A stretch of 64,000 nucleotides of DNA from an uncultured Chloroflexia bacterium (GCA_963766735.1 CAVYBU010000002.1:32001-96000); one strand, 5' to 3'; positions 30,130 to 50,533 are shown, counted from the stretch's first letter. The notes: generated from the letters alone by a model not told the origin. Made by a program: numbers and translations.

Positions 30130-30153
30130 AATTGCTGCGACAACTGAAGACTC

Positions 30154-30244
30154 GCCTCCGGGGAGCGCAATCGTGCGCTGAGAGTGTGGTTTGACCACAG
30201 ACCCGCGGAACCTGATCCGGTTCGTACCGGTGTAGGAAGCAGGC
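30154..30244 (+). ncRNA. TPP riboswitch
   Basis: GGGGAGC...GCTGAGA...GACCC..GAACCTGATCCGGTTCGTACCGGTGTAGGAA matches the TPP core; precedes an NMT1/THI5-type binding protein; TAGAAT -10 at 30127-30132. Confidence 0.92.
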
Positions 30245-30314
30245 CCGCACGCGTCGACGCCGTCCTCGGACCCCGGGGGCGGCGATGTTTCTTCCTGGAG
30301 GCCTCGACGCGATC

Positions 30315-33669: not shown

Positions 33670-35142
33670 ATGGACCTCCCGAGGGCAGACGTCGCGGCTG
33701 CCGTTCGCGCCCTCGACCCTTCGGACATTGCCGCCCGTCGATGGTTCCTCCAGAAGGGTGAGGTGCCCACCTCCGCGCGCCTTGCCCACGCGTTCTCCCT
33801 CTCGGGCTCGGCCGTGATCGCGCTGGTGGACCTGCGGATGGGCGAGGGGAGCGGCCGGCAGGAGCGCTATGCGATCCCGTTCGTCCGCGACCAGGCCAGT
33901 GGCACCTTCCGCGAGGCGGTCGAGGGTGACGGGGCCTGGCGGGCGCTTGCGGTGGCGATCGCGGAGGGCCGGACGATCCCGGCGCTCCCCCGAGAACCAG
34001 GAGCCGACCCCACCCATGTCGAGGCGGCCCTGATCTGCCGGCCCTCGCCGGGCTTCGCAGCCTCGTGGGCGGGGACGGCGGCGGATCTTGGCGTGGCCGA
34101 CGAGCGCGCTCTCGGCCGCGACCAGTCCAACACCTCGGTGGTGCTGGGCGACGCGCTGCTGCTCAAGGGCTACCGCCGCATCCAGCCGGGTCTCAATCCG
34201 GACCTGGAGCTCACCGCGTACCTCTCGGAGGAGGCCCTGTTCCCCGGCGTCCCGCGCCTCGCCGGCTGGGCGGATGCCGTCACCCGTGACGGCGGTGCCG
34301 CGACTGTGGCCATGCTGGGGGCGTTCATCGCGGACGCGGACGACCTGTACGAGAGCATCGCGGAGCGCCTGGCGATGCTGGTCGCGGCGCTGCACGCGGT
34401 GGACCTGGAGGCTGCCACGGAGGTCGCGGAGGACCTCGGCACGCTCGTGGCCGGCCTCCACGCGGCCCTTGCCTCGCCGCCCGCGGACGCGCCGGACCTT
34501 GCCCCGCGACCCGCCACCCACGATGAGCTCAAGGCCTGGCGTCTGGATGCCCACCGCCAGCTGAACCGCGCCATTCCCGCGGTCGACGCCGTGGATGCCC
34601 AGACCGCCACGGAGCTCCGCCTCGAATCGGCAGCAATCGCCGCCCGCGCCTCGCGCTTCGAGGCCGTGGCGAGCGCCCCGCTGGTCATGAGGATCCACGC
34701 GGACCTGCACCTCGGACAGGTTCTCGTGAGCGAGGACGGCTATCGCATCGTCGACTTCGAGGGCGAGCCGCTGCGGCCCGTCGAGGACCGGCGGCGCCTC
34801 GAGTCCCCGCTGCGGGACGTGGCCTCGATGCTCCGCTCGCTGGATCACGTGGCACGAAGCGCGCGGCGCCGCGCCGAGCGGCGGAACGGCGGCCCGCTGG
34901 AGCGGCCGGGGCTGGACATGGACGCCTGGATCGAGCGGGCGCGCGAACGGTTCCTGGGCGCCTACGCGAAGGGCCTGCACCGGGCCGGCTCACCGATCAT
35001 CCTCGACCTCGACCTCCTCGATGCGTTCGAGGTGGTCAAGGAGACGCACGAGTTCGTCTATGCGGCGGCTGTGCTGCCCTCCTGGCTGTGGGCCCCGCGG
35101 GAGGGGATGCGATGGCTGCTGGCACACGGGGAGGACCGATGA
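33670..35142 (+). CDS. Maltokinase-fold sugar kinase (maltokinase or glucosamine kinase-like)
   Basis: RRWF, DQSNTSVV, LLKGYR, NPDLEL, RIHADLHLGQVL, IVDFEGEP, SPLRDVASMLRS. Confidence 0.8.
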   Translation: MDLPRADVAAAVRALDPSDIAARRWFLQKGEVPTSARLAHAFSLSGSAVIALVDLRMGEGSGRQERYAIPFVRDQASGTFREAVEGDGAWRALAVAIAEGRTIPALPREPGADPTHVEAALICRPSPGFAASWAGTAADLGVADERALGRDQSNTSVVLGDALLLKGYRRIQPGLNPDLELTAYLSEEALFPGVPRLAGWADAVTRDGGAATVAMLGAFIADADDLYESIAERLAMLVAALHAVDLEAATEVAEDLGTLVAGLHAALASPPADAPDLAPRPATHDELKAWRLDAHRQLNRAIPAVDAVDAQTATELRLESAAIAARASRFEAVASAPLVMRIHADLHLGQVLVSEDGYRIVDFEGEPLRPVEDRRRLESPLRDVASMLRSLDHVARSARRRAERRNGGPLERPGLDMDAWIERARERFLGAYAKGLHRAGSPIILDLDLLDAFEVVKETHEFVYAAAVLPSWLWAPREGMRWLLAHGEDR

Positions 35143-36202: not shown

Positions 36203-38149
36203 CTACGCGATGCCCAGCAGCCTTGCCAGCACCGCGCCCACGCCCAGTGCCAGCGCGAGGGACGCGGCGGAGATCAGGAGCGCCGCGCGCCCGCCGAGCT
36301 CGCTGCGCAGGGCCGCCAGCGTCGCGATGCACGGGATCGACAGGCTGGCGACGACCGCGTACACGAACAGCTGGGCCGGCGAGAGCAGTTCGCCGAGGCC
36401 CGCCCGGTGCCCGAGCGACACCGCCGCGAACACGAGCAGCAGCTGCAGGGCCAGCTCCTTGCGCAGAAACGCGAACACGATCGCGACGCCCGCGATTGCC
36501 GGCAGCCCCAGGAGCCCCTCCGTGGCCGGACCCGTGGCGTCGGCGATGACCGTCCACGCCCCCGTCTCGTAGATGAGCCCAAGTACCAACGAGCCGGCGA
36601 GCATGATCGGCGTTGCAGTGACGACGAAGCCCCGGAAGCGCCACCAGGCCTTGGCGCCGACGTGCCGCGCGACCGGCATGCGGAGCGGAGCCAGCTCCAG
36701 GACCAGCGCCGGCTGGCGGCCGGGGACCAGGGCGTTGGCCCCGAGGCCGGCGGCGATCGTCGCCGCTGCAACCACGCCGAAGGCCGCGATCGCCACGGGC
36801 ACGCCCGCGAACGGAGCAAGCGCGGCGATCACGACCGCGGAGCGCGCGGAGCAGGGCGTAAGGGTGATCAGGAACGAGGCCAGGACCCGCTCCCGTCGGG
36901 TCCGCAGCACGCGGGTCCCGTAGATTGCGGGGACGTTGCAGCCGGCCGCGGCGAGGAGTGGGATTGCGGCCCGTCCGGGCAGGCCGAGCACTCCGAACAC
37001 GCGGTCCATGAGGACCGCCGCGCTGGTGAGGTACCCCGAGTCCTCGAGGGCGGCAAGCAGCAGGTAGAACGTCAGGACGTACGGGATACCGACGGCGAGC
37101 ATGCCCAGCATCCCGCCGTCGAGTGCCCAGAGAAGCGAGGACGACAGGATCGGCACGGGTACGAGGGTGGGAATGGCCGCCAGGAGGATCGGGGAGACGA
37201 CGGCGGCCCAGGCGGCGCTCAGCGCCCCGGCTAGCCAGCCACCCGCGAGGATCACCGCCAGGAACGCCGCAAGGCTGATGCCGAGGAACAACGGGATCCC
37301 GGGCCAGGGCGCCGTGGACCACCGTCCGAACCGGTCCGCGAGCGGCTCGGACACGTCCCGGTGCCGTTCGACGTCCGCGGACCATGCCGCGGCGATCGTC
37401 CAGCGCAGCGGCTCCAGCTCCCGGGCGTGCCGTAGCGTCGCCGCGCCACGACCGGAGACCAGGCCGGAGAGCACACCTGCCTGCAGCGGCTCTGCGACGG
37501 CGGCTGCGCCGAGCGAGCGCGGCGGTTCGGCGAGGTCGGCGGCAGTCTCCCGCAGCAGCTGCTCGATTGACCACGAGTAGACCGGAGCCGGGACGGTGGA
37601 TCGCGGCGAGGATGCGCCCTTGCGGACGGCTACTCGCGTCCGCGCCAGGCGGACCACATCGGCCAGAGCCGCATCCACGCCCTCGCCCGTGCGGCCGCAG
37701 GTCGCGTGGACCCGGGCGTTGAGCAGCTGCCCGAGGCGTCCGGTGTCGACCGTGACCCCGCGCTTGTCCGCCTCGTCGGCCAGGTTGGCGGCCAGGACCA
37801 CCGGCAGCCCGAGGTCTCGGCAGGCGAGTGCGAGGGGGAGGTGCCGCTCCAGGTGTCCCGAGTCCGCGACGACGAGGATCGCGTCCGGGGCGGCCTCCAG
37901 CACGAGCTTCCAGAACGGCTCGTTGCCGGCAGGCCGGTCGTCCATGGCGCGGGTCCCCGGGAGGTCGACGAGCCAGGCATCACCGGAGCCCGTCTGCACC
38001 CGCCGTCGCTCGAGTGCAACCGTTGTGCCGGGAGCATTGGCGGTCTCAACGAAGCGCCCGCTGGCCTGCGCCAGGAACGTGGACTTGCCGACGTTGGGGC
38101 GGCCGACAAGGGCGACAACGGGAAGGTCGTCGTCCCGGGCGGACATCAC
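36203..38149 (-). CDS. feoB: Ferrous iron transporter B
   Basis: GRPNVGKST, DLPG, NLAD; LEDSGY, GCNVPA, TPCSARS, LELAPLRMP, LRKE, PCIAT. Confidence 0.92.
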   Translation of the reverse strand: MMSARDDDLPVVALVGRPNVGKSTFLAQASGRFVETANAPGTTVALERRRVQTGSGDAWLVDLPGTRAMDDRPAGNEPFWKLVLEAAPDAILVVADSGHLERHLPLALACRDLGLPVVLAANLADEADKRGVTVDTGRLGQLLNARVHATCGRTGEGVDAALADVVRLARTRVAVRKGASSPRSTVPAPVYSWSIEQLLRETAADLAEPPRSLGAAAVAEPLQAGVLSGLVSGRGAATLRHARELEPLRWTIAAAWSADVERHRDVSEPLADRFGRWSTAPWPGIPLFLGISLAAFLAVILAGGWLAGALSAAWAAVVSPILLAAIPTLVPVPILSSSLLWALDGGMLGMLAVGIPYVLTFYLLLAALEDSGYLTSAAVLMDRVFGVLGLPGRAAIPLLAAAGCNVPAIYGTRVLRTRRERVLASFLITLTPCSARSAVVIAALAPFAGVPVAIAAFGVVAAATIAAGLGANALVPGRQPALVLELAPLRMPVARHVGAKAWWRFRGFVVTATPIMLAGSLVLGLIYETGAWTVIADATGPATEGLLGLPAIAGVAIVFAFLRKELALQLLLVFAAVSLGHRAGLGELLSPAQLFVYAVVASLSIPCIATLAALRSELGGRAALLISAASLALALGVGAVLARLLGIA

Positions 38150-38403
38150 GGGACCTCCGCCGTGGTCGAAACGCGCTGGGCGACGTCCATCGAGAGGGCG
38201 AGCCGGGTCCGTCCCAGCTCGACGATGATGGGCCCGCCCAGCGGTGTCCGAGTCCGTACGACCACGACGCTGCCGGGCAGGAGGCCCTCTTGCTCCAGCT
38301 CGTCCCGCGACGAACCAGACAGGGAGACGATGACCCGGCGCTCACCCGCGAGGACGCGCGAGAGCGGGACGGGGGCGGCGACGGGACGGGTCGTCTGGGA
38401 CAT
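38146..38403 (-). CDS. feoA: Ferrous iron transport protein A
   Basis: GLLPGSVVVV..TPLGGPIIVELG..RLALS; directly upstream of feoB. Confidence 0.88.
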   Translation of the reverse strand: MSQTTRPVAAPVPLSRVLAGERRVIVSLSGSSRDELEQEGLLPGSVVVVRTRTPLGGPIIVELGRTRLALSMDVAQRVSTTAEVP

Positions 38404-38654
38404 CGACGCCAGTAGGCCGTATCAAGGCTCCTTGACAACAGGGACCAAGGGTCCCTGTGTTGAGTGACCGATGTCCCGGACCGCCTGGGCCGCGGTGCCT
38501 GCGTGCAACGGCGAATCTGGGTACGACGCCGCGAAATACCAAGGTTCCGGCCCCCCTGGCACCGGGCCGGCGTCGTCTGGGTAGGGCCGCCGCCGGGCCA
38601 TTTGGGTCCCAAGCCGGGCCGGTCGGCCCTGCCGGGAGCCCCGCGATCCGGGCG

Positions 38655-38703
38655 TAGGATGCGGTAGCTTCGAGTTGGTTTGGTAGGTTTGGGAGGTTTC
38701 GAG
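38655..38703 (+). promoter_or_regulatory. Promoter -10 (TAGGAT) followed by three 9-bp-spaced GGTTT direct repeats
   Basis: TAGGAT at 38655-38660; GGTTT at 38677, 38686 and 38695 in an unusually T-rich patch. Confidence 0.55.
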
Positions 38704-38708
38704 CGGCA

Positions 38709-39401
38709 ATGCCGGCACGTGCAAGCGTGAATGACCCCGGGTGGGTGACGCTCACCGAGGCCTGCCGCATGCTCGGCGTCTCTCCCTCCACCGTCCGTCG
38801 CTGGGCCGACAGTGGCATGGTCCGGACCTTTGTCACACCCGGTGGTCACCGCCGCTTCTCCCGGGCAGGCCTCGAGGCCCTCCTGCCGGACCGCCCAACC
38901 GGTCGCCCGTCCCTGTCGGACCTTGGGGAGACCCCGGGTCGCATGGCCCGCGGGTACCGCCGCGAGACCGACGAGACGACCGGTCATCTCCCGTGGATCG
39001 AGGAGCTTGACGACGCACGTCGCGAGCACTTCCGCAACCACGGGCGGGGGATCGTCACGGCATTGCTCGAGGCGCTGGACACCGACGATCCAGACCTCCG
39101 CGCCGACCTCCTTCATTCCGCCGAGGGATCCTGCACCGAGTACGGCCAGTTCGCCGGTCGAGAGGGCCTCCCGTCCTCCGTCACCGCGGACCTCTTCCTG
39201 CGTTTCCGCCGCCCGTTCCTCGCCGAGCTCGGCGCCCTCGCCCGGCGCCGCGAGCTCGACGCCTCCGCCACGTCCACACTGATCGCCGAGGCCAACACGG
39301 CTCTCGACGGCCTCCTCCTGGCGACGCTCCGCGGCTGGGAGGCCGCGGCACCGGGAGCCGGCCGCCGTCCGCGCCGCAAGGTCGCGTCCCCAGCGTCCTG
39401 A
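38709..39401 (+). CDS. Xis/BldC-like (MerR-type) HTH regulator with C-terminal all-helical putative sensor domain
   Basis: WVTLTEACRMLGVSPSTVRRWADSG...TPGGHRRF; C-terminal amphipathic helices with EYG...G...LFLRFRRP; alternative start 38727. Confidence 0.8.
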   Translation: MPARASVNDPGWVTLTEACRMLGVSPSTVRRWADSGMVRTFVTPGGHRRFSRAGLEALLPDRPTGRPSLSDLGETPGRMARGYRRETDETTGHLPWIEELDDARREHFRNHGRGIVTALLEALDTDDPDLRADLLHSAEGSCTEYGQFAGREGLPSSVTADLFLRFRRPFLAELGALARRRELDASATSTLIAEANTALDGLLLATLRGWEAAAPGAGRRPRRKVASPAS

Positions 39402-39423
39402 CCACCAACCCAGGAGCCGAATC

Positions 39424-40755
39424 GTGACCGTCCCGAACCCTGTCCGCGCCGTCAACCCCCATCATGGAGACGGGCACCCGATGACCGAGGACGGCGATCC
39501 CGCCTTCGACCTCATGCACGGGCACCCCGGTCTGCTGCCCGCCGACCTGCCGCCCGACCTGCGCCTGGTCGCCCTGGTTGTCCACGCGCGTGACGTCCCG
39601 AGCGAAGCTCGCGAGGCGTTCGGTGATGAGGCTGAGGCGATCGCGCATGACCCGCGGGCGATCCTGCTCCGAACCTGCCACCGGGTCGAGCTGTACGTGA
39701 CCGGTGAGGCTGTTGCGGGCCGGGCGCCGCTGGCGCTGCCGGCCCTGCCCGAGGGTGGACGGCGTCTCGAGGGCGCCGATGCAGCACGTCACGTGCTCAT
39801 GGTGGCAGCCGGACTCGACAGCGTGGTCGTGGGCGAGGACCAGGTCCTCCACCAGCTCCGCGAGTGCGTCGCCGATCGGCATCTGCCGGAGGCCGGCAGA
39901 TGCCCGGTCGACGTGGGGTCCTCGAGCCCGCAGGCGCCCGTGCTGGAGCCGCTGCTCGAGCGGCTGCTCCAGGTCGCGCTCCACCTGGGGCGCGAGACGC
40001 GATCGTGGCGCGACGGCCCGCCGCGCTCGTTGGGCGACGTTGCGCTCGACCGGATCCTGCCTGTCACGGGACCGCTCCTGGGGCGCCGGGTGCTCGTCGT
40101 CGGCGCCGGCCGCATGGCCCGCCTGGCCGCTTTGGCCGCGGCTCGGAACGGCGCCCGGGTCATGGTCGCGAACCGTGGCGCCGACCGTGCCGTCGCGCTT
40201 GCGCACGAGGCGAACGGCGAGCTCGCCCCGTTCGGCCCGGCGGCACCGCTGCCGAAGGCCGACGCCGTCATCCTCGCGATCTCCGCCACCTGGCCCCTCT
40301 CGCCGGTCGCCCGTGACGATCTGCTCGCCGGCACCTGCCCCGTGATGGATCTCTCGTCCCCGCCAGCCGTCGACCCCGACCTCCGACGAGCCCTCGCGGA
40401 GCGCTACACGTCGGTGGACGACCTCGCCCGCACCCCGCGGGGCGACATCGGCCCCCGAGCCGAGCGCCGTTACCAGCGCGCCGTCGACGCGGCGTTGACC
40501 GGTTTCAGCCACTGGGTACGTGCCCGGTCCTCGGTGCCGGTGATCCGGGCGCTGAGCGAGCTCGCCGAGGACCGTCGGGCGGAGGAGGTGGACAGGATCA
40601 TGCGGCGCCTGGACCTCCCCGAGCACCAGCGCGCCCTGGTGGTCCAGATGAGCCACCGGCTGGTCGCGGGGCTGCTCCACGCCCCCCTGGTCGCATTGCG
40701 CGAGGACACGAGCGGCCATGCCGAGCGTGCGGCGCGGTCCCTGTTCGATCTCTAG
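39424..40755 (+). CDS. hemA: Glutamyl-tRNA reductase (divergent)
   Basis: TCHRVELY, VAAGLDSVVVGEDQVLHQ, VVGAGRMA, ANRG, LLHAP; first enzyme of the hem operon. Confidence 0.85.
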   Translation: MTVPNPVRAVNPHHGDGHPMTEDGDPAFDLMHGHPGLLPADLPPDLRLVALVVHARDVPSEAREAFGDEAEAIAHDPRAILLRTCHRVELYVTGEAVAGRAPLALPALPEGGRRLEGADAARHVLMVAAGLDSVVVGEDQVLHQLRECVADRHLPEAGRCPVDVGSSSPQAPVLEPLLERLLQVALHLGRETRSWRDGPPRSLGDVALDRILPVTGPLLGRRVLVVGAGRMARLAALAAARNGARVMVANRGADRAVALAHEANGELAPFGPAAPLPKADAVILAISATWPLSPVARDDLLAGTCPVMDLSSPPAVDPDLRRALAERYTSVDDLARTPRGDIGPRAERRYQRAVDAALTGFSHWVRARSSVPVIRALSELAEDRRAEEVDRIMRRLDLPEHQRALVVQMSHRLVAGLLHAPLVALREDTSGHAERAARSLFDL

Positions 40756-40770
40756 CTGGTGATGCGTCCC

Positions 40771-42468
40771 ATGTCCCGAACATTCCGTATCGGCACTCGC
40801 GGCAGCGAGCTCGCCCTGGTCCAGGCCCGCTGGGTCGCCGCCCGCCTCGCGGAGCACGGCGTCACCTCGGAGATCACGATCGTCCGAACCGAGGGCGACG
40901 ACCGCCCTGTGGACACCGCCTGGGGCGAGGGCGCCTTCGTCGGCCGCATCGTGGCGGCCCTGCTGGACGGCACCGTGGACCTCGCGGTCCACTCCGCGAA
41001 GGACGTCCCGACGACGGAGCCGGACCAGCTGGTGATCGCCGCCTATCCGCCCCGGGAGGATCCCCGCGACGCGCTCGTCTGCCGGGTCCGGGGAACGACG
41101 CTCGCAACGCTCCCTGTCGGCTCCCGCGTGGGCACGGACTCCCCGCGCCGGGCCGCCTTCCTGCGGGCGGTCCGCCCGGACCTTGACCTCCACCCACTTC
41201 ACGGCAACGTGGACACCCGGCTGGCCAAGCTGGATCGCGGAGACAGCGATGCGCTGGTCCTCGCGGTGGCGGGGCTGACGCGCCTCGGTCGTGCGGAGCG
41301 GATCGACGACACCCTGCCAGCCGACGTTGTCCCGTCCGCTCCGGGCCAGGGCTCGCTGGCGCTGCAGGTCCGTGCCGGGGACGCCGAGGCGATCGCGGTC
41401 GTGGGGCTCCTGGACGATGCGGACACGCGGGTCGCGGTCGAGGCGGAGCGGGCGCTCCTCGCCGGGACCGGCGGTGGTTGCCGGTCCCCGATCGGGGCCG
41501 TCGGGACAGTCCGGGACGGGCGACTGGAGATGCTGGCGGGGGCCGAACGGACATGGACCCCGGGCGAGGACGCTGCGATCGCGGTGTCTCGCGTGGCCTG
41601 GGTCAGGGGCAATGCCACCGCTGCCGACCGCGCCCACCTGTCCACACGTCTGGCCCGCCGCATCGTGGCGCTGCGCACGCGGCCCAGGGCGCTGGTCGCC
41701 CGGCCAATCGGACAGGCCGAGGCGATGGTAGTGGCGCTCGATAGCGCGGGCGTCGAGCCGGTTCACGTGCCTGCCATCGAGATCCGCGCGGCCGCTCCCG
41801 GTGGCGCCTTCGACACCGCGGTCGCCCGGGTCAATGCCGGGGACACCGTGGTCGTGACCAGCGCGAACGCCGCACGGGCAATGCTCCGGGCGGCGACGCG
41901 CATGGACCTGGCCCCGGCCGTCCTCGCCTGGGCCGCGGTGGGGGAGGCGACGGCCGCCGTCCTCACCGACGCCGGGCTGGAAGGCGTCTTCATCCCCACC
42001 GAGCCCAACGCCGCCGCGCTCGCGCGGGAGTTGCCCATCCGGCCCCACGACCGGGTCCTGGTGCCGCACGCGGACATCGCGGACAGGGCCCTCGCGGAGA
42101 CGCTGCGCGCACGGGGTGCGACCGTCACCGATGTCGTTGCCTACGAGACGGCCGAGGCCCCCGAGACGTCCCGCCCGCTGCTCGCCGCGGCGCTCGACGA
42201 CGGCCCGGTGGACGTCCTGGTGCTCACCAGCGGTTCGACGGCGCGCGGGCTGCTGGCCCTCGCCTCGGACGACGCGCTGGCGCGGCTCCTGGCCACGCCG
42301 GTGATCACCGGTGGGCCGGCAACCTTCGCCGCCGCCCGCGAGCTGGGCTTCGAGACCGTGCTCCAGGCCCCTTCGCCCGGCGCCCTGGCCCTCGCCACCT
42401 TCACCGCCGCCGCGCTGGGCGTGGCGGCGCCCGATCCCCGGCCCACCCCCGCAGGAGAGACCCGATGA
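40771..42468 (+). CDS. hemC: Hydroxymethylbilane synthase fused to uroporphyrinogen-III synthase (HemC-HemD)
   Basis: IGTRGSELALVQA, AVHSAKDVP, GNVDTRLAKL, GGCRSPIG; C-terminal VVTSANA, AVGEATA, VAYET, LTSGSTA. Confidence 0.92.
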   Translation: MSRTFRIGTRGSELALVQARWVAARLAEHGVTSEITIVRTEGDDRPVDTAWGEGAFVGRIVAALLDGTVDLAVHSAKDVPTTEPDQLVIAAYPPREDPRDALVCRVRGTTLATLPVGSRVGTDSPRRAAFLRAVRPDLDLHPLHGNVDTRLAKLDRGDSDALVLAVAGLTRLGRAERIDDTLPADVVPSAPGQGSLALQVRAGDAEAIAVVGLLDDADTRVAVEAERALLAGTGGGCRSPIGAVGTVRDGRLEMLAGAERTWTPGEDAAIAVSRVAWVRGNATAADRAHLSTRLARRIVALRTRPRALVARPIGQAEAMVVALDSAGVEPVHVPAIEIRAAAPGGAFDTAVARVNAGDTVVVTSANAARAMLRAATRMDLAPAVLAWAAVGEATAAVLTDAGLEGVFIPTEPNAAALARELPIRPHDRVLVPHADIADRALAETLRARGATVTDVVAYETAEAPETSRPLLAAALDDGPVDVLVLTSGSTARGLLALASDDALARLLATPVITGGPATFAAARELGFETVLQAPSPGALALATFTAAALGVAAPDPRPTPAGETR

Positions 42469-43493
42469 CGCTCCTCGCCGGCGGCCCGCTGGCCTCCGTG
42501 TCCGACGCAGAGACCACGGATCCCGCCCACCGCCTCCGACGCACCCGCCGGACGGAGACCCTCCGCGCGTTCGTGCGCGAGACCCGCATCCATCCCCGCA
42601 ACCTGGTCGCGCCCATGTTCGTGACCCCGGGCCGCGGCGTCCGCGAGCCCGTGGGGTCCATGCCCGGCGTGGTACGCGTGTCGCCCGACGAGGCTCTGGG
42701 CGACGCCCGGGCCCTCGCCGCGCTCGGCATCGGCGGCCTGATCCTTTTCGGCCTGCCGGCTGAGAAGGACGGCGTCGGCACCGGTGGCTGGGTGCGCGAT
42801 GGCATCGTGCAGGAGACGCTCCGCCGGTTGCGGGACGCGGACCTGGACCTCGTGCTGATCGCCGACACCTGCCTCTGCGAGTACACGGATCACGGGCACT
42901 GCGGCCCGCTCCTCCCGGACGGTCGCGTCGACAACGATGCCACCATCGAACTCTTTGCCCGGACGGCGGCTTCACAGGCGGAAGCCGGCGCCGACATCGT
43001 CGCGCCCAGCGGCATGATGGACGGTCAGGTGGCCGCGATCCGACGTGGCCTGGATGCCGACGGCCACCAGGACGCCGCGATCCTGGCCTACGCCGCCAAG
43101 ACCGCGTCCGCGTTCTACGGCCCGTTCCGCGAGGCTGCGGGCTCGGCGCCATCGTTCGGCGACCGCCGCGGCTACCAGATGGATCCGGCCAACGGCCGCG
43201 AGTCGATGCGCGAGATCGCAGTGGACATGGCCGAGGGCGCCGACATGCTGCTCATCAAGCCCGCGCTGCCGTCGCTGGACATCCTCGCCGCGGCCCGTGC
43301 CCGCTTCGACGTCCCGATCGGCGCCTACCAGGTGAGCGGCGAGTACGCCTCCATCGAGGCCGCCGCTCAGCGCGGCTGGCTTGACCGCCGCCGCGCCCTC
43401 ACCGAGAGCACCGTCTCGATCCTGCGCGCGGGCGCCGGGTTCGTCATCACCTATGCCGCCGCCGACCTCGCGGCCTGGTCGCAGGAGGCCTGA
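42465..43493 (+). CDS. hemB: Porphobilinogen synthase (Zn-type)
   Basis: DTCLCEYTDHGHCG, APSGMMDG, SAFYGPFREA, DRRGYQMD, IKPA, YQVSGEY. Confidence 0.95.
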   Translation: MTLLAGGPLASVSDAETTDPAHRLRRTRRTETLRAFVRETRIHPRNLVAPMFVTPGRGVREPVGSMPGVVRVSPDEALGDARALAALGIGGLILFGLPAEKDGVGTGGWVRDGIVQETLRRLRDADLDLVLIADTCLCEYTDHGHCGPLLPDGRVDNDATIELFARTAASQAEAGADIVAPSGMMDGQVAAIRRGLDADGHQDAAILAYAAKTASAFYGPFREAAGSAPSFGDRRGYQMDPANGRESMREIAVDMAEGADMLLIKPALPSLDILAAARARFDVPIGAYQVSGEYASIEAAAQRGWLDRRRALTESTVSILRAGAGFVITYAAADLAAWSQEA

Positions 43494-43494
43494 C

Positions 43495-44805
43495 ATGAGT
43501 TCCGACACCACGACATCCAGCATCCCGCCCGCCGACGGTCGCCAGGCCCAGCTTCGCCGGGAGGCGGCGGACCTGTTCCCGGGTGGCGTCAACAGCCCCG
43601 TGCGGGCATTCCGGTCCGTCGCCCGCCCGCCCCTCATTCTCGACGCCGGCAAGGGCCCCCGCGTCCGCGACGCGGACGGCCACTGGTACCTGGACTACAT
43701 CGGCAGCTGGGGTCCCGCGATCCTGGGCCACGCTGCCCCAGCGGTGGTCTCCGCGGTCCGTGAGGCGGCCCTCGACGGGTTCGCCCTGGGCGCCACCGGC
43801 CCCCGCGAGGTGGAGCTGGGCGAGCGCGTCCGCGCCGCGATGCCCTCGATGGAGCGAATGCGGTTCGTATCGTCCGGCACCGAGGCCGTCATGAGCGCGA
43901 TCCGCCTGGCGCGTGGCGCCACGGGGCGTGACCTGATCGTGAAGTTCGCCGGCGGCTACCACGGCCACGGTGACAGCCTGCTGGTGGACGCCGGATCCGG
44001 CCTGGCGACGCTGGGGATGCCCGGGTCCGCGGGCGTCACTGCGGCGGCCGCGCGCGACACGATCGTGATCCCGTACAACGACGTCGCCGCGGTGGCCGAG
44101 GTGTTCCGTGCCCACCCGGAGCAGGTCGCCGCGATCATCGTGGAGCCGGTCGGCGCCAACGTGGGCGTCATCGCCCCGGAGCCCGGATTCCTCGAGGCGC
44201 TGCGCAGGCTGACCGAGGCGAACGGTGCCCTGCTGATCTTCGACGAGGTCATCACCGGGTTCCGCGTCGCGCGCGGCGGGGCGCAGGAGCGCTACGGGAT
44301 CGTGCCGGACCTCACGACGCTGGGCAAGATCGTCGGCGGCGGGATGCCGATCGGTGCCTACGGCGGCCGCGCGGACCTCATGGCGCAGGTCGCCCCGGAT
44401 GGCGGCGTCTACCAGGCCGGGACCCTGTCCGGTCATCCGCTGTGCATGGCCGCTGGCGTCGCCGCCCTCGACCTGCTCACACCGACCGTGTACGAGCAGC
44501 TGGAGGCGACGGGAGCCGCGCTTGAGACGGGGCTGAGACAGGCTGCCGCCGAGGCCGGCCGGGAGGTTGCGATCTCCCGCGTGGGCTCGCTCCTGACGGT
44601 GTTCTTCCTCCGGGACGTTCCGCGCAACTCCGCCCAGGCACTGACCGCCGACAGGGAGGCCTTCACCCGGTTCTTCGGCGCCATGCTGGACGAGGGGGTG
44701 CTCCTCGCGCCGTCCCAGTTCGAGGCCTGGTTCATCTCGGTCACCCACGGCGATGACGAGATCGCCGAGACGCTGGCGGCGGCGCGGAAGGCGTTCGCGG
44801 CATGA
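43495..44805 (+). CDS. hemL: Glutamate-1-semialdehyde 2,1-aminomutase
   Basis: PGGVNSPVRAF, SSGTEA, FDEVITGFR, LGKIVGGG, YQAGTLSG, PSQFEA. Confidence 0.95.
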   Translation: MSSDTTTSSIPPADGRQAQLRREAADLFPGGVNSPVRAFRSVARPPLILDAGKGPRVRDADGHWYLDYIGSWGPAILGHAAPAVVSAVREAALDGFALGATGPREVELGERVRAAMPSMERMRFVSSGTEAVMSAIRLARGATGRDLIVKFAGGYHGHGDSLLVDAGSGLATLGMPGSAGVTAAAARDTIVIPYNDVAAVAEVFRAHPEQVAAIIVEPVGANVGVIAPEPGFLEALRRLTEANGALLIFDEVITGFRVARGGAQERYGIVPDLTTLGKIVGGGMPIGAYGGRADLMAQVAPDGGVYQAGTLSGHPLCMAAGVAALDLLTPTVYEQLEATGAALETGLRQAAAEAGREVAISRVGSLLTVFFLRDVPRNSAQALTADREAFTRFFGAMLDEGVLLAPSQFEAWFISVTHGDDEIAETLAAARKAFAA

Positions 44806-45830
44806 GTCCTGATGCGCGGTACCTCCGCGCGGCGCGCGGCCTGCCGGTGGACACGACCCCGGTCTGGTTCATGCGCCAGGCCGGGCGGGCGCTGCCCGAG
44901 TACCGCAAGGTCCGCGAGCGGGCGACTCTTCTCGAGATCACCCGGGACCCGGCGCTGTGCGCGGAGGTCACCCTCCAGCCGGTGCGCCGCCTCGGCGTGG
45001 ACGCCGCCATCCTGTTCGCGGACATCACGACGCCGCTCGCGGGCCTCGGCGTCGCTTTCGACATCAAGGAGGGTGTCGGCCCCGTCATCGAGCATCCCGT
45101 CCGGACCATGGCCGACGTGGAGGCCCTGCACCCCTTCGACCCCGAGGCGTCGGTAGCGCCCCTCCTCCAGGCCATCCGGCTGATCCGCGCCGAATCGCCG
45201 GTGCCCCTGATCGGCTTTGCCGGCGCGCCGTTCACCCTCGCCTGCTACCTCATCGAGGGTGGCCCGTCACGCGACTTCCAGCGGACCAAGCGGCTGATGC
45301 ACGCCGAGCCCGGGACGTGGGCCGCTCTGCTGGATCGTCTCGTGGATGCGACCATCGTCTATCTCTCCGCCCAGGTGGCCGCAGGGGCCCAGGCCGTGCA
45401 GGTGTTCGACTCGTGGGTCGGCGGCCTGAGCCCGCTGGACTACGAGCGCCGCCTGTGGCCGTGGATGCGCCGCCTGTTCGAGGGCATCGCGCCGCTTGGT
45501 GTCCCGATGACGCACTTCGGCGTGGGTACCGGCGGGATCCTGGGCCTCCAGGCATCGGCCGGCGGCGACGTGATCGGCCTCGACTGGCGGATCGCGCTGT
45601 CCGAGGGCCGGCGGCTCGTCGGCGACCGGGCGGTCCAGGGGAACCTGGACCCGGTGCTGCTGCTCGGCCCCTGGGAGGGGGTGGAGGAGGCGGCCCGCTG
45701 GGTCCTCGCCGAGAACGACGGGCGGCCCGGCCACATCTTCAACCTGGGCCACGGCGTCCTGCCCGGCACGGACCCCGATCACCTCGCGCGACTCGTCGAC
45801 CTCGTCCACAGCTCTGGAGCGTCCCGATGA
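44802..45830 (+). CDS. hemE: Uroporphyrinogen decarboxylase
   Basis: PVWFMRQAGR, DAAILFADI, GFAGAPFTLA, QVFDSW, QGNLDP, FNLGHG. Confidence 0.95.
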   Translation: MSPDARYLRAARGLPVDTTPVWFMRQAGRALPEYRKVRERATLLEITRDPALCAEVTLQPVRRLGVDAAILFADITTPLAGLGVAFDIKEGVGPVIEHPVRTMADVEALHPFDPEASVAPLLQAIRLIRAESPVPLIGFAGAPFTLACYLIEGGPSRDFQRTKRLMHAEPGTWAALLDRLVDATIVYLSAQVAAGAQAVQVFDSWVGGLSPLDYERRLWPWMRRLFEGIAPLGVPMTHFGVGTGGILGLQASAGGDVIGLDWRIALSEGRRLVGDRAVQGNLDPVLLLGPWEGVEEAARWVLAENDGRPGHIFNLGHGVLPGTDPDHLARLVDLVHSSGASR

Positions 45831-46759
45831 CCACCGCCGTCCTGCTCATGGCCTACGGCAGCCCCGACCGGCTGGACCAGGTCGAGGCCTACTACACGGA
45901 CATCCGCCGCGGCAATCCGCCCCCGCCTCACCTCCTGGAAGAGCTGCTGGATCGCTATCGGGCGATCGGAGGCGGCTCCCCGCTGTCGCGGATCGTGGAG
46001 GAGCAGCGGGCCGCCGTGGAGGCGGAGCTGGCGTCGCGGGGCGTGCCCGTCCGCGTGTACGCGGGCATGCGGCACATCGAGCCGCGGATCGGCGACATCG
46101 TCAAGGGCATGGTCGCGGACGGGGTGGACCGTTTCGTCGCGATCGCCCTCGCCCCGCAGAAGTCGTCCAATGCCGCCGGGTACCGCCGGGCGGTCGACAC
46201 CGCGAGCGCCTCGATCGCCGAGGCCGGTGGCCGCCCTCCCGAGGTGATCTTCGTTGACTCGTGGCACGACCAGCCGCGGTTCATCGAGGCGTTGGCCGAG
46301 ACCACCCGCGAGGCGCTCGCCCGCTTCGACGATCCGTCCCGGGTCCGCGTCATGTTCACCGCCCACAGCCTGCCCGCACGCGTCGTGGCGGAGGGGGATC
46401 CGTACCCGGACGAGCTGGCCCGGACCGCGTCACTCGTGGCCGCCGCGCTGGGGCTGGAGCGCTATGACTTCTCGTTCCAGAGCGCAGGCCGAACCGGCGA
46501 GCCGTGGCTTGGCCCGGACATCCTCGACGAGATCCGGCGCCTGGCCGCCGACGGCGTCACGGAGCTGGTGATCCGGCCCGTGGGCTTCGTCGCCGACCAC
46601 CTGGAGGTCCTCTACGACATCGACATCGAGGCCCAGGGCGTCGCTCGCCCGCTCGGGGTGCGCCTGGAGCGCGCCCGCTCGATGAACACCGACCCGACGT
46701 TCATCGCCGGCCTCGCCGATATCGCGGCCGACGCCCTGCGTCCCACGACGGTCGCCTGA
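45827..46759 (+). CDS. hemH: Ferrochelatase (probably coproporphyrin ferrochelatase, CpfC-type)
   Basis: LLMAYGSP, YRAIGGGSPL, FTAHSLP, QSAGRTGEPWLGPD, GFVADHLEVLYDID. Confidence 0.93.
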   Translation: MTTAVLLMAYGSPDRLDQVEAYYTDIRRGNPPPPHLLEELLDRYRAIGGGSPLSRIVEEQRAAVEAELASRGVPVRVYAGMRHIEPRIGDIVKGMVADGVDRFVAIALAPQKSSNAAGYRRAVDTASASIAEAGGRPPEVIFVDSWHDQPRFIEALAETTREALARFDDPSRVRVMFTAHSLPARVVAEGDPYPDELARTASLVAAALGLERYDFSFQSAGRTGEPWLGPDILDEIRRLAADGVTELVIRPVGFVADHLEVLYDIDIEAQGVARPLGVRLERARSMNTDPTFIAGLADIAADALRPTTVA

Positions 46760-46778
46760 GCGACCGGAGGAGTTCCCG

Positions 46779-48053
46779 ATGACCACGCCGTCCCACAGCC
46801 AGATCGATCCCGCCCCGGCCGGCCGCCCGGGAGGACACCCCGGCGGACATCCCGGCGGCCACCCGGGCGGGCACCCCGGTGGCATCACCGGCGTCGGCGC
46901 CGTCCGCGCCGAGGGCTACGTCTACGACCGCGCCCCGATGCTCGTCTACTGGGAGACGACGCTCGCCTGCGGCCTCGCCTGCCGTCACTGCCGGGCCACG
47001 GCCCAGGCCGAGCGCAACCCGCTCGAGCTGACGACCGAGGAGGGCTACCGCCTCCTGGACGAGGTGATCAGGTTCGGGCGCCCGTACCCGCACGTCGTGT
47101 TCACCGGCGGCGACCCGCTCAATCGCCCCGACCTCCACGAGCTGGTCCGCGCGGCCACCGAGCGGGGGATCGGCGCCTCCCTGGCCCCGGCCGCCACGCC
47201 GCTCCTCACCCAGGAGGTGATGGAGAGCCTGCGCGATGCCGGCGTCCAGAACATCAGCCTCTCGCTCGATGGCTCCGACGCGAAACGCCACGACGGCTTC
47301 CGCATGGTCGAGGGCACGTTCGACAAGACGCTCCAGGCGGCGAAGTGGGCCCGCGCGGCCGGCCTCCCGATCCAGGTCAACACGCTGGTCACGGACGAGA
47401 CCCTGAGCGACCTGCCTGCGGTCTACGAGCTCCTGCTGGGCATGGACATCCTGCGCTGGAGCCTGTTCATGCTGATCACCACGGGGCGGGGGAGCGACCT
47501 GCGCGAGGTCACCCCGGCCCAGTCCGAGAAGCTCAACGCATGGCTGTTCGGGCTCTCGAAGGAGGCCCCGTTCCAGGTCAAGACGACCGAGGCCACCCAC
47601 TACCGCCGGCATGCCATCCGGGACATGGAGGCGGCCGGGATGTCCTTCGACGACATCCTCAAGACGTCCGTGGGCCGTGGGTTCGGCATCCGGGACGGCA
47701 ACGGGATCGTGTTCATCAACCACGACGGCACGGTGAACCCGTCGGGCTTCCTGCCGATCCCGCTGGGGAACGTGCGCGAGGCGTCGATCGTGGACCTGTA
47801 CCGCGATCACCCGGTGATGCGCGGCCTGCGCAACCCGGAGGGCTTCAAGGGCCGCTGCGGCGCCTGCGAGTACGCGCGGATCTGCGGCGGATCGCGGGCG
47901 CGGGCCTACGCCTGGACGGGCGACCCGCTCGAGTCCGATCCGCTCTGCCCGTACGTGCCGTCGGGTTCGGTGGCCCAGTACGGGATGCCGGTCGATGCCG
48001 GCGCCGCCCGCCCTGTTGCCGCCGGTCCGGCCACGGCCGGAATCAAGGCCTGA
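46779..48053 (+). CDS. Radical SAM/SPASM enzyme, AhbD/NirJ-like (candidate coproheme decarboxylase), with N-terminal GGHP repeats
   Basis: WETTLACGLACRHCRA (CX3CX2C), FTGGDP, SLSLDG, C-terminal GRCGACEYARICGGSRARAYA...DPLC. Confidence 0.82.
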   Translation: MTTPSHSQIDPAPAGRPGGHPGGHPGGHPGGHPGGITGVGAVRAEGYVYDRAPMLVYWETTLACGLACRHCRATAQAERNPLELTTEEGYRLLDEVIRFGRPYPHVVFTGGDPLNRPDLHELVRAATERGIGASLAPAATPLLTQEVMESLRDAGVQNISLSLDGSDAKRHDGFRMVEGTFDKTLQAAKWARAAGLPIQVNTLVTDETLSDLPAVYELLLGMDILRWSLFMLITTGRGSDLREVTPAQSEKLNAWLFGLSKEAPFQVKTTEATHYRRHAIRDMEAAGMSFDDILKTSVGRGFGIRDGNGIVFINHDGTVNPSGFLPIPLGNVREASIVDLYRDHPVMRGLRNPEGFKGRCGACEYARICGGSRARAYAWTGDPLESDPLCPYVPSGSVAQYGMPVDAGAARPVAAGPATAGIKA

Positions 48054-48067
48054 GAGGGCCCCAGGCG

Positions 48068-49570
48068 ATGAGCGTCCTGGTTGTCGGCGGCGGGATCACG
48101 GGACTCGTGGCCGCTCGCGCGCTCGCGCTCGACGGTGTCCCGGTCACCCTGGCCGAGGCCGGCCCCCGACTCGGCGGCAAGGTGGTCACCGAGCGCGTGG
48201 ACGGGTTCACGCTGGAGCACGGGCCGGATTCGTTCCTGGCCACGCGCCCGGCGGCGATCTCGCTGGCTCGGGAGCTGGGGCTCGGCGCGGAGCTGACCGG
48301 CACGCTCGATCCCCGGGCGGTGTTCATCCGCCACAACGGCTCGCTGGTGCCGATGCCGGAGGGCCTGGGGCTCGTCCTGCCGACGAAGGCGATGCCGTTC
48401 GCGAAGAGCAAGCTGTTCTCGTGGCCGGAGAAGGCCCGGATGGCCGTCGACGTCGTCTCGCCGCGCCGGCTCGGCCCCGATGACGTGGCCGTGGGGACGT
48501 ACCTGCGCTCGAGGCTCGGGTCTCCGCTCGTTGACCGGCTGGCCGGGCCGCTGGTGGGCGGGGTCTACGGGACGCCGATCGACGAGCTGAGCCTGGACGC
48601 GGTGGTGCCGCAGCTGCGGACCGCAGAGCGCCAGCACCGCAGCCTGCTGTTCGCCGGCCTCTCGGACGGACGGTCGATGCGCCGGGCAGCCGCCGCGCGG
48701 GCGGCGAGCGCGGCCCGGGCGGAGGCTGCGGCCGCCTCCGGTGCCCCTGCCGCGCCGGGGACGAAGCCGCTGGGGACCTTCGTCTCGCTCCGCGGCGGCA
48801 TGGACCGGCTGATCGATGCCGTCGTGGCATCGGCGGAGGTTGCGGGCGCCGACCTGCGCACGAGGTTCGCGGTACGTGCGCTCGCGCGGTCCGGGTCCGG
48901 CGTCACGGCGCGGTTCTCGGATGGGTCCGAGGCACGGTTCGACGCAGTGATCATCGCCGCGCCGGCGCCGGTGGCTGCCGTCCTGCTCGACGACGAGGCG
49001 CCGGGCGCGTCCGCCGCGCTCGATGAGATCCCGCACGGGACCAGCATCCTCGTCACGCTCGCGTACCCGCGCGAGGCCGTCGGCCACCCACTCATCGGTC
49101 ATGGCTACCTCGTGCCTCCGTCTGACGGCGGCGCGATCAGTGCCTGCACCTGGACGTCGCAGAAGTGGCCCGACCGCGCGCCTGAGGGCACCGTCCTGCT
49201 CCGGATGTTCGTCCGCGACGAGGGTGCGTGGACCCGCCTTGCGGACGAGGCGCTGGTCGCCTCGGCTCGCGAGGACGCCGGCCGCACGCTCCGGATCACC
49301 GGCGAGCCGCTCCTCGTCCGCGTCTCGCGCTACGAGCACTCGATGCCCCGCTACACCGTTGGACACCTGCGGCGTGCCGCGGCTATCGAGGCGGCGGTCG
49401 GCGCGTGGCCGGCGGTGACGGTGACCGGGGCCTCGTACCGCGGCGTGGGGCTGCCGGACTGCATCTCCCAGGGCCTGGCCGCGGCCTCGTCCGTGGCTGC
49501 GCGCCTCCGGGAGGCCGCCGAGCCGGCGGACCCGGACCTGCCCGCGGCGCGGGAGATGGCGACCGCCTAG
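48068..49570 (+). CDS. hemY: Coproporphyrinogen/protoporphyrinogen oxidase (HemY-type flavoprotein)
   Basis: VVGGGITGL, RLGGKV, EHGPDSFL, GGVYG, KWPDRAP, MPRYTVGH, YRGVGLPDCI. Confidence 0.9.
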   Translation: MSVLVVGGGITGLVAARALALDGVPVTLAEAGPRLGGKVVTERVDGFTLEHGPDSFLATRPAAISLARELGLGAELTGTLDPRAVFIRHNGSLVPMPEGLGLVLPTKAMPFAKSKLFSWPEKARMAVDVVSPRRLGPDDVAVGTYLRSRLGSPLVDRLAGPLVGGVYGTPIDELSLDAVVPQLRTAERQHRSLLFAGLSDGRSMRRAAAARAASAARAEAAAASGAPAAPGTKPLGTFVSLRGGMDRLIDAVVASAEVAGADLRTRFAVRALARSGSGVTARFSDGSEARFDAVIIAAPAPVAAVLLDDEAPGASAALDEIPHGTSILVTLAYPREAVGHPLIGHGYLVPPSDGGAISACTWTSQKWPDRAPEGTVLLRMFVRDEGAWTRLADEALVASAREDAGRTLRITGEPLLVRVSRYEHSMPRYTVGHLRRAAAIEAAVGAWPAVTVTGASYRGVGLPDCISQGLAAASSVAARLREAAEPADPDLPAAREMATA

Positions 49571-49603: not shown

Positions 49604-50533
49604 TCAGCCGTCCAGCGCCGCCCGGAGCTCAGGGAGCCGGTCCATCGTCTCGAAGTCGAAGGGCGTCCGGAAGATCAGGATCGGATGCGCGAAACCGGCT
49701 TCCCGGTAGCGGGCGAGCGTCGCCGCCACCTCCTCGACCGGCCCGCCTGCCGACAGCTCCCGCTCCTCGTCCTGCGGCAGGTGCGCGGCGAGGTATCCCG
49801 CCCAGGCGGCCTCCGCCTCGGCGCGGCTTGAGCGGATGACCACGTTGAGGTTCACCGTGCGCTCGATCTCGCCCTCGTCGCGTCCGGCGGCCTCGCAGGC
49901 CCCCCGCAGGATCGTGTCGGCCGCCGCCACCTCGTCCGGCGTCCCGTAGGCGTTCCACATGTCCGCGCTCCGGGCGATGAGCGGCAGCGTCTTCTTCGGC
50001 CCAGAGCCACCGATCAGGATCGGCAGGTGCTCCTGGACCGGGCGCGGCGCGCAGACGGCGTCACGGAACGTGTAGAAGCGCCCCACGTGGGTGACCGACT
50101 CGCCGTCCAGGAGCCGCCGCATAAGCGGCACGGCCTCGACCAGCCGATCCAGCCGCTCCCCGATGCCGCTCCCGAAGTCGAAGCCGAACGCTTCGTGCTC
50201 GCGCTCGAACCAGCCGGCTCCGAGGCCCAGGATCGCGCGTCCGCCGGAGACGTGGTCGATCGTCGTCGCCATCTTGGCCGTGAGGCCGGGGTTGCGGAGG
50301 GTGTTGGCGGAGACCATGTGGCCGAGCCGTGCCCGGTCGGTGATCGCGGCGATCGCCGCCAGCGTGGTCCAGCCCTCGAACTTGGCGTCCGGCCAGTCCC
50401 CCTCGTCGGAGAGCAGGTGGTCGTCGATCCACAGGTCGTCGAACCCGGCCGCTTCGGCGTGCAGGACCGCCAGGCGCAATTCCTGCCAGCCCGTGCGCTG
50501 GACCCAGAACGCCGCCCCGAACTGCATCGCCAT
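49604..50533 (-). CDS. LLM-class flavin/F420-dependent oxidoreductase
   Basis: AGFDDLWIDDH, FEGWTTLAA, RNPGLTAKMATTIDHVSGGR, GAGWFEREH, PILIGGSG. Confidence 0.88.
   Translation of the reverse strand: MAMQFGAAFWVQRTGWQELRLAVLHAEAAGFDDLWIDDHLLSDEGDWPDAKFEGWTTLAAIAAITDRARLGHMVSANTLRNPGLTAKMATTIDHVSGGRAILGLGAGWFEREHEAFGFDFGSGIGERLDRLVEAVPLMRRLLDGESVTHVGRFYTFRDAVCAPRPVQEHLPILIGGSGPKKTLPLIARSADMWNAYGTPDEVAAADTILRGACEAAGRDEGEIERTVNLNVVIRSSRAEAEAAWAGYLAAHLPQDEERELSAGGPVEEVAATLARYREAGFAHPILIFRTPFDFETMDRLPELRAALDG

Follow-up and report, generated by a model that had tools for sequence, protein, structure and literature searches.

The locus considered here raises the question of what governs an entire biosynthetic operon. 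A 64,000-nucleotide stretch of DNA from an uncultured Chloroflexia bacterium (GCA_963766735.1, CAVYBU010000002.1:32001-96000; hereafter, the window) carries a heme-synthesis operon headed by the gene for a 230-residue protein, P0001, and we asked whether this protein regulates the operon, on which DNA sites it would act and which signal it would read. The best explanation as a whole, to which we assign a probability of roughly 0.55, is that P0001 acts as a one-component transcription factor on its own operon and thereby on the entire heme pathway, probably as a dimeric, self-regulating local repressor. The parts of this reading differ in strength: P0001 is likely to be a transcription factor acting on direct repeats ahead of its gene, it is fairly likely to be a repressor, and the odds that its effector is a tetrapyrrole are even. 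The regulation of heme synthesis is known for few phyla. The family of P0001 offers a concrete and testable candidate with a predicted operator, DNA-contact residues and sensor site.

38709..39401, + strand: regulator gene encoding P0001 (230 residues), with a BldC-like winged helix at ~12-59, a flexible linker at ~60-75 and a predicted globin-like sensor/dimerization domain at ~64-217

The winged helix and its putative operator

The N terminus of P0001 had been annotated initially as a winged helix-turn-helix (wHTH) of the MerR/excisionase type, and this assignment held. Pfam HTH_17 matches residues 12-59 (E 6e-11), MerR also matches, and the NCBIfam excisionase domain TIGR01764 scored 35.1 bits against a cutoff of 28.8; the NCBIfam BldC model (NF033787) reached 47.6 bits, below its cutoff of 77. 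The top sequence matches in the PDB are the BldC-DNA complexes 6amk (E 5e-8) and 6ama (E 3e-7), and a profile search of PDB sequences returned helix-turn-helix (HTH) matches only. The wing sequence TPGGHRRF is common to P0001 and the cobalamin-binding protein 8jbs.

BldC of Streptomyces contacts DNA through Thr27, Arg30, Trp31 and Lys26 of its recognition helix and through His46, Arg47 and Arg48 of the wing, and Gly44 lies at the head-to-tail interface between protomers (PMC5859096). When P0001 was aligned to 6amk, seven of these eight named residues proved identical: T27, R30, W31, G44, H46, R47 and R48 of BldC correspond to T28, R31, W32, G45, H47, R48 and R49 of P0001, and K26 is replaced by S27. 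All of the BldC-type residues of P0001 are invariant in 33 homologs, except R31, which is conserved in at least 90%. Judged from its sequence, the N terminus is a BldC/excisionase-type winged helix that keeps the DNA-contacting and oligomerizing residues of BldC. The two proteins share this fold with ~42% identity over ~50 residues and differ in most other respects: BldC is a pleiotropic developmental regulator of 68 residues without an effector or dimerization domain, whereas P0001, with its 230 residues and predicted folded domain at 64-217, is apparently a local operon regulator.

Immediately upstream of the regulator gene we found a set of direct repeats, which we propose as its operator because of their conservation, their uniqueness in the genome, their presence in distant lineages and their likeness to BldC sites. 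The elements of this region are as follows.

38616..38633, + strand: perfect palindrome GGGCCGgtCGGCCC, followed by the invariant block GCCCTGyC, at the -35 position of the promoter; retained by most Limnocylindria loci
38655..38660, + strand: putative -10 hexamer TAGGAT of the regulator-hem promoter; A2 and T6 do not vary among the 18 loci aligned
38665..38701, + strand: predicted operator of four direct repeats
38665-73, + strand: repeat 1 of the predicted operator, TAGCTTCGA
38675-83, + strand: repeat 2, TTGGTTTGG
38684-92, + strand: repeat 3, TAGGTTTGG
38693-38701, + strand: repeat 4, GAGGTTTCG

The repeats take the 9-bp form RRTTTSGNA in three to four copies between the -10-like hexamer and the start codon; their TTT tracts are spaced exactly 9 bp apart, and the region overlaps the Shine-Dalgarno sequence GGGAGG. 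The most conserved intergenic columns among 18 aligned regions were TAGGAT (38655-38660), GCCCTGyC around -35 and the stretch 38670-38698, and the repeat consensus over 35 Limnocylindria loci was ACCTTCGAnnAGGTTTGGnAGATTTGGGAGGTTTcgc. Each BldC protomer binds a 9-bp direct repeat of the form AATTxxxx(C), such as GATTTCCCC or CATTTGCAC, with His46 reading a narrowed AT minor groove (PMC5859096), and the predicted repeats here (AGGTTTGGG, AGATTTGGG) resemble these sites, with the same 9-bp spacing. A second factor may bind at the palindrome GGGCCGgtCGGCCC. A Rfam scan of 38350-38800 at E ≤1 returned only a chance snoRNA fragment, with no family matching the intergenic region.

The strongest single argument for the operator comes from the rest of the genome. 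A 22-nt motif, searched with up to three mismatches, matched once in the 3.6-Mb genome (zero matches for the reversed control), and the looser pattern AGRTTT-N2-5-AGRTT matched twice on both strands together, at 38685 of the window and just upstream of P0272, a paralog of P0001 in the same genome. Because each of these two matches lies just upstream of one gene of the family, we infer that each member acts on its own operon, with the repeats as its cognate sites. P0272 (C6:140883-141497, - strand; locus L062, 9833-10660) is 42% identical to P0001, carries its own AGATTTACTCAGGTT repeat just upstream, and is followed by a gene for a 348-residue protein without a Pfam or NCBIfam match, a nucleotidyl transferase and a PASTA Ser/Thr kinase.

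Across the phylum, genes of the family are likewise preceded by direct repeats of 9-10 bp of the type (T)AGRTTT. Two distant loci (L096 and L097) have TAGATTTCTAATGG TAGATTTGG TAGAATTTA TAGATTC ahead of the ATG, another (L109) has TAGATTTCGA TAGATTTCTGG upstream, and similar TAGATTT-type repeats lie upstream in L106, L111, L094, L095 and L105. The operon of L102 begins with hemY, and there the repeats lie ahead of hemY; in L100 and L101 they precede a PucC-family gene in the opposite orientation.

These features suggest how P0001 could act. Two or more dimers would line up their flexibly tethered winged helices along the repeats in the head-to-tail manner of BldC, and occupancy of the repeats would block the site of RNA polymerase or of the ribosome, so that the regulator-hem operon would be repressed at the initiation of transcription or of translation. 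OmpR/PhoB-type regulators likewise combine a symmetric sensor dimer with DNA-binding domains arranged in tandem, and so does CarH, which binds direct repeats.

Tetrapyrrole genes beside the family across the phylum

To assess the gene context of the family, we fetched 57 loci, of which L001 to L052 hold full-length relatives (39-82% identity); the relatives of the window belong to Chloroflexota, namely the Limnocylindria group, together with metagenome-assembled genomes labeled Dormibacterota. Directly after the homolog comes hemA or hemCD in all 51 close loci that extend downstream (the sequence of L033 stops within the gene), and the arrangement of regulator and hem genes is thus not due to chance. 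Three weaker relatives (L053, L055 and L056) adjoin a peptidase gene, a BtrH-like gene and a peptide ABC transporter. In L010, two paralogs (909-1598 and 6001-6696) each head one half of a split hem cluster, and L072 and L085 contain two divergent copies, with hemA after one of them.

A phmmer search with the C-terminal domain alone against 1.84 billion representatives yielded 192 proteins at E ≤1e-3, nearly all of them 210-270 residues long with the domain at ~65-220. The C-terminal domain profile A4 matched 179 of the 401 sampled Chloroflexota genomes at E ≤1e-5, some of them closed assemblies, and among the best 30 loci of this phylum scan, viewed with 1.5-kb flanks, a hem gene lay directly downstream in 21 and not in 9. 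Public databases list these proteins under generic names ("excisionase family DNA binding protein," "helix-turn-helix domain-containing protein"), and a second protein search with the C-terminal domain profile returned only close relatives, again generically named.

We further analyzed 20 more distant regions from 15 genome families by tblastn and Pfam, counting families as well since kin are not independent. A tetrapyrrole gene was adjacent in 13 of the 20 regions, corresponding to 10 of the 15 families. A hem operon directly follows the regulator in L096, L097, L102, L109 and L112; sirC and then hemA follow it in L106 and L111, and a cobA-hemD fusion in L105; in L107, ahbAB, chdC, hemA and hemL lie 1.4 kb downstream. 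Genes for PucC-family transporters of the major facilitator superfamily (MFS) recur as well: one follows the regulator in L094 and L095, one precedes it in L100, where the hem operon lies 2.5 kb away on the other strand, and in L101 the order is ChuX/HemS, PucC and then the regulator. These four loci belong to two other Chloroflexota families, in which the regulator and the PucC-family gene form a common operon, and they hint at a module for heme or tetrapyrrole import and use under the same type of regulator.

In a quick maximum-likelihood tree of 102 rows (79 heme linked, 20 unlinked and 3 unknown), heme-linked rows occur on either side of the deepest split, and 9 changes of label are required, compared with a mean of 20.9 after shuffling. 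HTH-only or truncated matches, own-genome duplicates and matches shorter than 150 residues or ending short of query residue 190 were left out of the tree, and one row, the plus-strand copy of L085, was labeled unlinked only because its hemA fragment is below the 60-residue limit. Homologs are strongly linked to heme genes in the close loci, in the phylum scan and in the distant regions alike. As read from gene order, the family is phylum-wide and usually stands beside tetrapyrrole genes: hem operons, sirC-hemA, and PucC-type transporters with ChuX/HemS. This whole-family context makes a tetrapyrrole effector plausible.

The regulator family appears to be undescribed: its parts are known, and their combination, target and operator are new. 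HrrSA/ChrSA, DtxR/IdeR, Fur, Irr, PerR, SpxA1, HemX and Rex have the same apparent task of setting hem gene expression, with folds and DNA-binding modes unrelated to those of P0001. The available text of a 2024 review on the regulation of heme synthesis covers HemX, HrrSA/ChrSA, DtxR/IdeR, PerR and SpxA1, none of the P0001 type and none for Chloroflexota (PMC10991733). Our literature search, which covered sources other than subscription journals and bioRxiv supplements, found no paper describing the family as a heme-gene regulator.

The predicted globin-like domain and its possible effectors

The C-terminal domain had been described at the outset as globin/RsbR-N-like rather than Rossmann-like, and structure prediction and fold search agree with that description. 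An AlphaFold2 (AF2) model built from 33 sequences, with a mean predicted local distance difference test (pLDDT) score of 78.4, places helices at 76-89, 95-99, 102-124, 128-151, 156-180 and 185-213 and gives the linker at 60-75 low confidence. In VIA-align, residues 64-217 came closest to the non-heme globin sensor pXO2-61 (3pmc_B), with a Z score of 12.7, a root mean square deviation (rmsd) of 2.6 and 131 of 132 residues aligned, on a scale on which helical models can reach Z ~13 by chance. Further matches were the MtR stressosome sensor 3zta (Z 10.6), the DosC globin (9.7), the MabR N-domain (9.2), the RsbR N-domain (9.1), AfGcHK (9.0) and photocobilin domains (8.2, for a bilin-binding domain, and 6.9); phycobiliproteins were also among them, and at least 36 of the 50 matches listed are globin-type, as judged by their titles. 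A Foldseek search of the model against the PDB returned HTH domains only, with no match at E ≤0.001. At the sequence level, an echo of RsbRD_N (PF14361) appeared in two of six family members scanned (E ~0.01; 16.6-17.1 bits against a gathering cutoff of 24.3), and an ESM Atlas cluster named RsbRD_N, also with HTH_17, matched with a score of 0.84. The evidence is good, though short of conclusive, for the predicted sensor-globin fold of the non-heme RsbR-N/pXO2-61 type at residues 64-217.

The model lacks helix F, the carrier of the proximal His in heme globins, since helix 128-151 joins helix 156-180 via a loop of four residues. The heme-binding globin-coupled sensors HemAT, DosC and AfGcHK share the overall fold (Z 7.5-9.7) and a helix G/H dimer; they hold heme via a proximal His on helix F, and P0001 has neither. 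Its predicted features are closer to those of RsbR-N (2bnl), pXO2-61 (3pmc) and the N-domain of MabR/Rv2242 (9fb1), which have in common with it a globin-like fold, no helix F, no heme-ligating His and a dimer formed by the last two helices. MabR is such a non-heme globin domain inside a transcription factor, and its N-domain is likewise described without helix F (PMC11617747). The outputs of these sensors are STAS, histidine kinase or PucR-HTH domains, whereas P0001 has an N-terminal BldC-type winged helix and a tetrapyrrole context, and its sequence similarity to Pfam RsbRD_N stays below threshold.

A homodimer predicted for residues 65-218 reached an interaction prediction score from aligned errors (ipSAE) of 0.67 (best control, 0.00). 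Among solved homo-pairs, 20 of 30 attain this mark, compared with 1 of 23 proteins whose structures were determined as single chains. Contacts agreed by at least 93% between runs, the partner pLDDT was at least 72, and the predicted interface comprises residues 155-211, that is, the last two helices. This pass may partly reflect likeness, because dimers of similar globin sensors have already been solved. Among the 33 homologs, R105, G112, G146 and R167 of the domain are invariant, and Y83, R84, W96, R109, Y145, F163, R165, F166, F170, R179-181 and D184 are conserved in at least 90%. R179-D184 lies in the predicted interface; W96, R105, R109, G112, Y145, G146, F163, F166 and R167 lie outside it and may form a second conserved surface, which could be a ligand site.

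P0001 would then work as a switch in which the globin-like domain binds a small molecule and changes DNA occupancy. Heme or a porphyrin is the most likely effector, because the family adjoins heme synthesis, the siroheme branch, PucC-type transporters and ChuX/HemS heme utilization; with heme or a porphyrin intermediate as the effector, the circuit would provide end-product feedback. The tetrapyrrole would have to be held without His, perhaps via the conserved Tyr145-Gly146 together with Arg105, Arg109 and Arg167. Tyr-ligated heme sensors exist, FhtR among them, and bilin-binding globin folds use Arg/Asp contacts; the latter are described in a survey of photoglobins (PMC8717448).

The marks of photoglobins are a family-specific Asp in helix 3, a hydrophobic residue in helix 4 and a usual link to a B12 domain, and in the available text of the photoglobin survey HTH_17 comes up only within B12-photoglobin architectures (PMC8717448). 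CarH/LitR and photocobilin-type B12 photoreceptors (5c8e, 8jbs and 8j2w) fuse a MerR/HTH_17-type winged helix to a sensor of a tetrapyrrole-derived ligand, as P0001 possibly does. Whereas CarH/LitR has a B12-binding Rossmann domain and a B12-binding_2 bundle, P0001 has no Pfam B12 domain and ends at residue 230; CarH could be aligned to its model only with an rmsd of 19-21 Å, and, unlike these regulators, P0001 gives no evidence of light sensing.

Several observations weigh against P0001 as a tetrapyrrole-responsive repressor acting on the repeats. Conservation of the last repeats in Limnocylindria is partly explained by the overlapping Shine-Dalgarno sequence, the repeats of lower-GC lineages themselves resemble -10 hexamers (TAGAAT, TAGATT), and a simple sigma-70 scan of 38300-39500 flagged no promoter, so that the -10 assignment follows from conservation only. 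In the C-terminal part, residues 65-230 match no Pfam or NCBIfam model, P0001 itself lacks a match to RsbRD_N, and hhalign of the domain profile with 14 genuine Chloroflexota RsbRD_N domains gave a probability of 7.4% (P 0.0048), in addition to the chance level of Z scores given above. No His or Cys in columns 65-230 is invariant or at least 90% conserved across the homologs, comparison of heme-linked with unlinked members revealed no heme-specific residue signature, and Y145, G146, R105, R109, F163, F166 and R167 are kept also in members without a heme-gene link. Unrelated neighbors were found in 7 of the 20 distant regions, at the own-genome paralog and in a subclade of Limnocylindria. Finally, a place at the head of a hem operon does not make a regulator a heme sensor: Rex of Streptomyces, which is the autoregulated first gene of such an operon (rex-hemACD), as P0001 probably is, senses NADH.

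The alternative that survives best, although we consider it unlikely, keeps the same DNA binding and lets the sensor read something other than a tetrapyrrole, such as a redox signal, a fatty acid or acyl-CoA, or another metabolite, so that heme supply would be tuned to respiratory need in a Rex-like manner. The nearest structural matches are indeed non-heme globin sensors, and the ligands known or suspected for them are other than heme. In pXO2-61 the ligand is a fatty acid. For MabR, the available text of its description gives the effector as not known (PMC11617747). The missing helix F and the lack of conserved His or Cys also fit such a sensor, as do the members that adjoin peptidase, peptide-ABC, phosphoglucomutase or kinase genes. 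What speaks against it is the enrichment of tetrapyrrole genes in 10 of the 15 sampled families, which includes ChuX/HemS and PucC-type transporters besides biosynthesis, and an operator that is local, with two sites in the genome, unlike that of a global redox regulon. Moreover, neither Pfam nor the AF2 model reveals a Rossmann or other redox-cofactor domain; Rex has a Rossmann NAD(H)-binding domain, whereas the C-terminal domain of P0001 is all helical.

Less likely still is a protein without any effector, in which the globin-like domain merely dimerizes and P0001 acts as a dose-dependent autoregulator or as a BldC-like architectural factor that buffers hem expression. BldC works without an effector domain (PMC5859096), many conserved residues, 178-189 and R179-D184 among them, belong to the predicted interface, and no ligand-specific signature separates heme-linked from unlinked members. 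On the other hand, the conserved residues outside the interface suggest a second site, and a sensor-type fold of 150 residues exceeds what dimerization needs.

A broader version of tetrapyrrole sensing can be proposed only tentatively. P0001 would represent an unrecognized class of Chloroflexota regulators in which a His-less globin binds heme or a porphyrin noncanonically, possibly via Tyr145 and Arg residues; the ligand would govern BldC-style assembly of the winged helices on (T)AGRTTT repeats, heme synthesis, the siroheme branch and heme uptake or utilization (the PucC/ChuX operons) would each be under a paralog of its own, and the family might be the main heme-homeostasis system of the phylum. 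If tetrapyrrole sensing is true, a globin fold would sense a tetrapyrrole without the canonical histidine, BldC head-to-tail DNA binding would extend to ligand-controlled regulators, and P0001 would be a compact heme- or porphyrin-responsive switch. If the signal is something else, the family would still be a local heme-pathway regulator of a large, poorly studied phylum.

The heme operon, feoAB and the neighborhood

Gene calls and neighbors agree with the initial annotation that the 230-residue open reading frame (ORF) heads a hemA...hemY operon and is divergent from feoAB. The G+C content of the window is 70-75%, and its genes at this locus are as follows.

36203..38149, - strand: feoB, divergent neighbor
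38146..38403, - strand: feoA, divergent neighbor
39424..40755, + strand: hemA, glutamyl-tRNA reductase
40759..42468, + strand: hemC-hemD fusion, hydroxymethylbilane synthase and uroporphyrinogen-III synthase
42465..43493, + strand: hemB, 5-aminolevulinic acid (ALA) dehydratase
43495..44805, + strand: hemL, glutamate-1-semialdehyde aminomutase, with the start picked at the ATG after GGAGG
44802..45830, + strand: hemE, uroporphyrinogen decarboxylase
45827..46759, + strand: hemH, ferrochelatase
46779..48053, + strand: radical SAM/SPASM protein, TIGR04053 (455 bits against a cutoff of 395), a relative of AhbD
48068..49570, + strand: hemY, protoporphyrinogen/coproporphyrinogen oxidase family

Gaps or overlaps between the genes of the regulator-hem operon are at most 25 nt, and a terminator scan of 38300-39500 found no terminator-like site between the regulator and hemA. 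The hemC-hemD fusion is a single ORF of 569 residues, retained in close relatives, and the match splits in two in more distant ones. The radical SAM protein scored 298.6 bits with the AhbD model (cutoff, 500) and is a candidate oxygen-independent coproheme decarboxylase. ChdC/HemQ (PF06778) was not found in the genome, which is 94% complete; together with hemE, hemH, hemY and the TIGR04053 gene, this suggests a coproporphyrin-type route ended by an oxygen-independent, AhbD-like decarboxylase.

The divergent iron-uptake genes enter into a third alternative, that of the initial annotation, according to which heme is ligated by His and Cys residues of the C-terminal domain and feoAB and the hem operon are coregulated from their shared intergenic region. 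We regard it as improbable. The quoted motifs are present in P0001 (GHLPW at 92-96, EHFRNHG at 106-112 and GSCTEYG at 139-146), and Cys141 is kept in the close Limnocylindria clade; outside this closest clade C141 is lost, and H92, H107 and H111 vary among the homologs as well, which argues against them as ligands. feoAB diverges from the regulator in 26 of the 49 close loci with enough upstream DNA and codirectional in one more (L037), a synteny confined to part of Limnocylindria; it is absent from the Dormibacterota-labeled loci and from all 20 distant regions. The feoA side yielded neither the repeat motif nor, near feoA, a second operator. Instead, that side carries different conserved elements.

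38422-38435: feoA-proximal palindrome TCAAGGctCCTTGA, conserved
38438-38458: feoA-proximal palindrome ACAGGGACCaagGGTCCCTGT, conserved
~38515-38545: feoA-side inverted pair ATCTGGGT...ACCnAGAT, conserved

The observation that no Fur or DtxR-like gene is present at the locus stands for the window, which lies on contig C2; elsewhere in the genome there are three Fur matches and one DtxR match (contigs C19, C3 and C17). Joint control of iron import is thus unsupported, because the feoA-side elements differ from the repeat motif and because Fur and DtxR genes exist elsewhere, and the proposed coupling to iron import comes down to synteny.

That P0001 serves a mobile element as excisionase or recombination directionality factor and stands beside hem genes by accident is suggested by the TIGR01764 score above cutoff and by a fold match to the Xis protein of mycobacteriophage Pukovnik (Z 8.6) and has a negligible probability given its conserved place ahead of hem operons across the phylum, its 150-residue sensor domain, and immediate neighbors that are feoA and hemA rather than an integrase gene (integrases were not searched for specifically).

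The region 38404-38561 may serve as the leader of feoA or as the operator of some other regulator. Across 17 loci, RNAalifold predicted no consensus structure for the feoA-sense leader, and a two-hairpin structure drawn by hand from the window sequence had 67% paired cells, compared with 34-44% in slid controls, an ambiguous result. In one RNA library, contigs of relatives of ~90-95% identity covered feoA with 38100-38561, a portion of the regulator gene and stretches of hemA; such contigs carry no information on start, strand or level.

The locus is flanked by a maltokinase-like gene (33670-35142, + strand; TreS_Cterm below cutoff) and by a gene for an F420-dependent oxidoreductase of the luciferase-like monooxygenase (LLM) class (49604-50533, - strand; TIGR03560, 232.8 bits against 231.4). 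In a Rfam scan of the whole window, the only matches at the gathering threshold were a thiamine pyrophosphate (TPP) riboswitch at 30149-30256 (+ strand; 63.9 bits against a gathering score of 54.3) and a tRNA gene at 20390-20461 (- strand).

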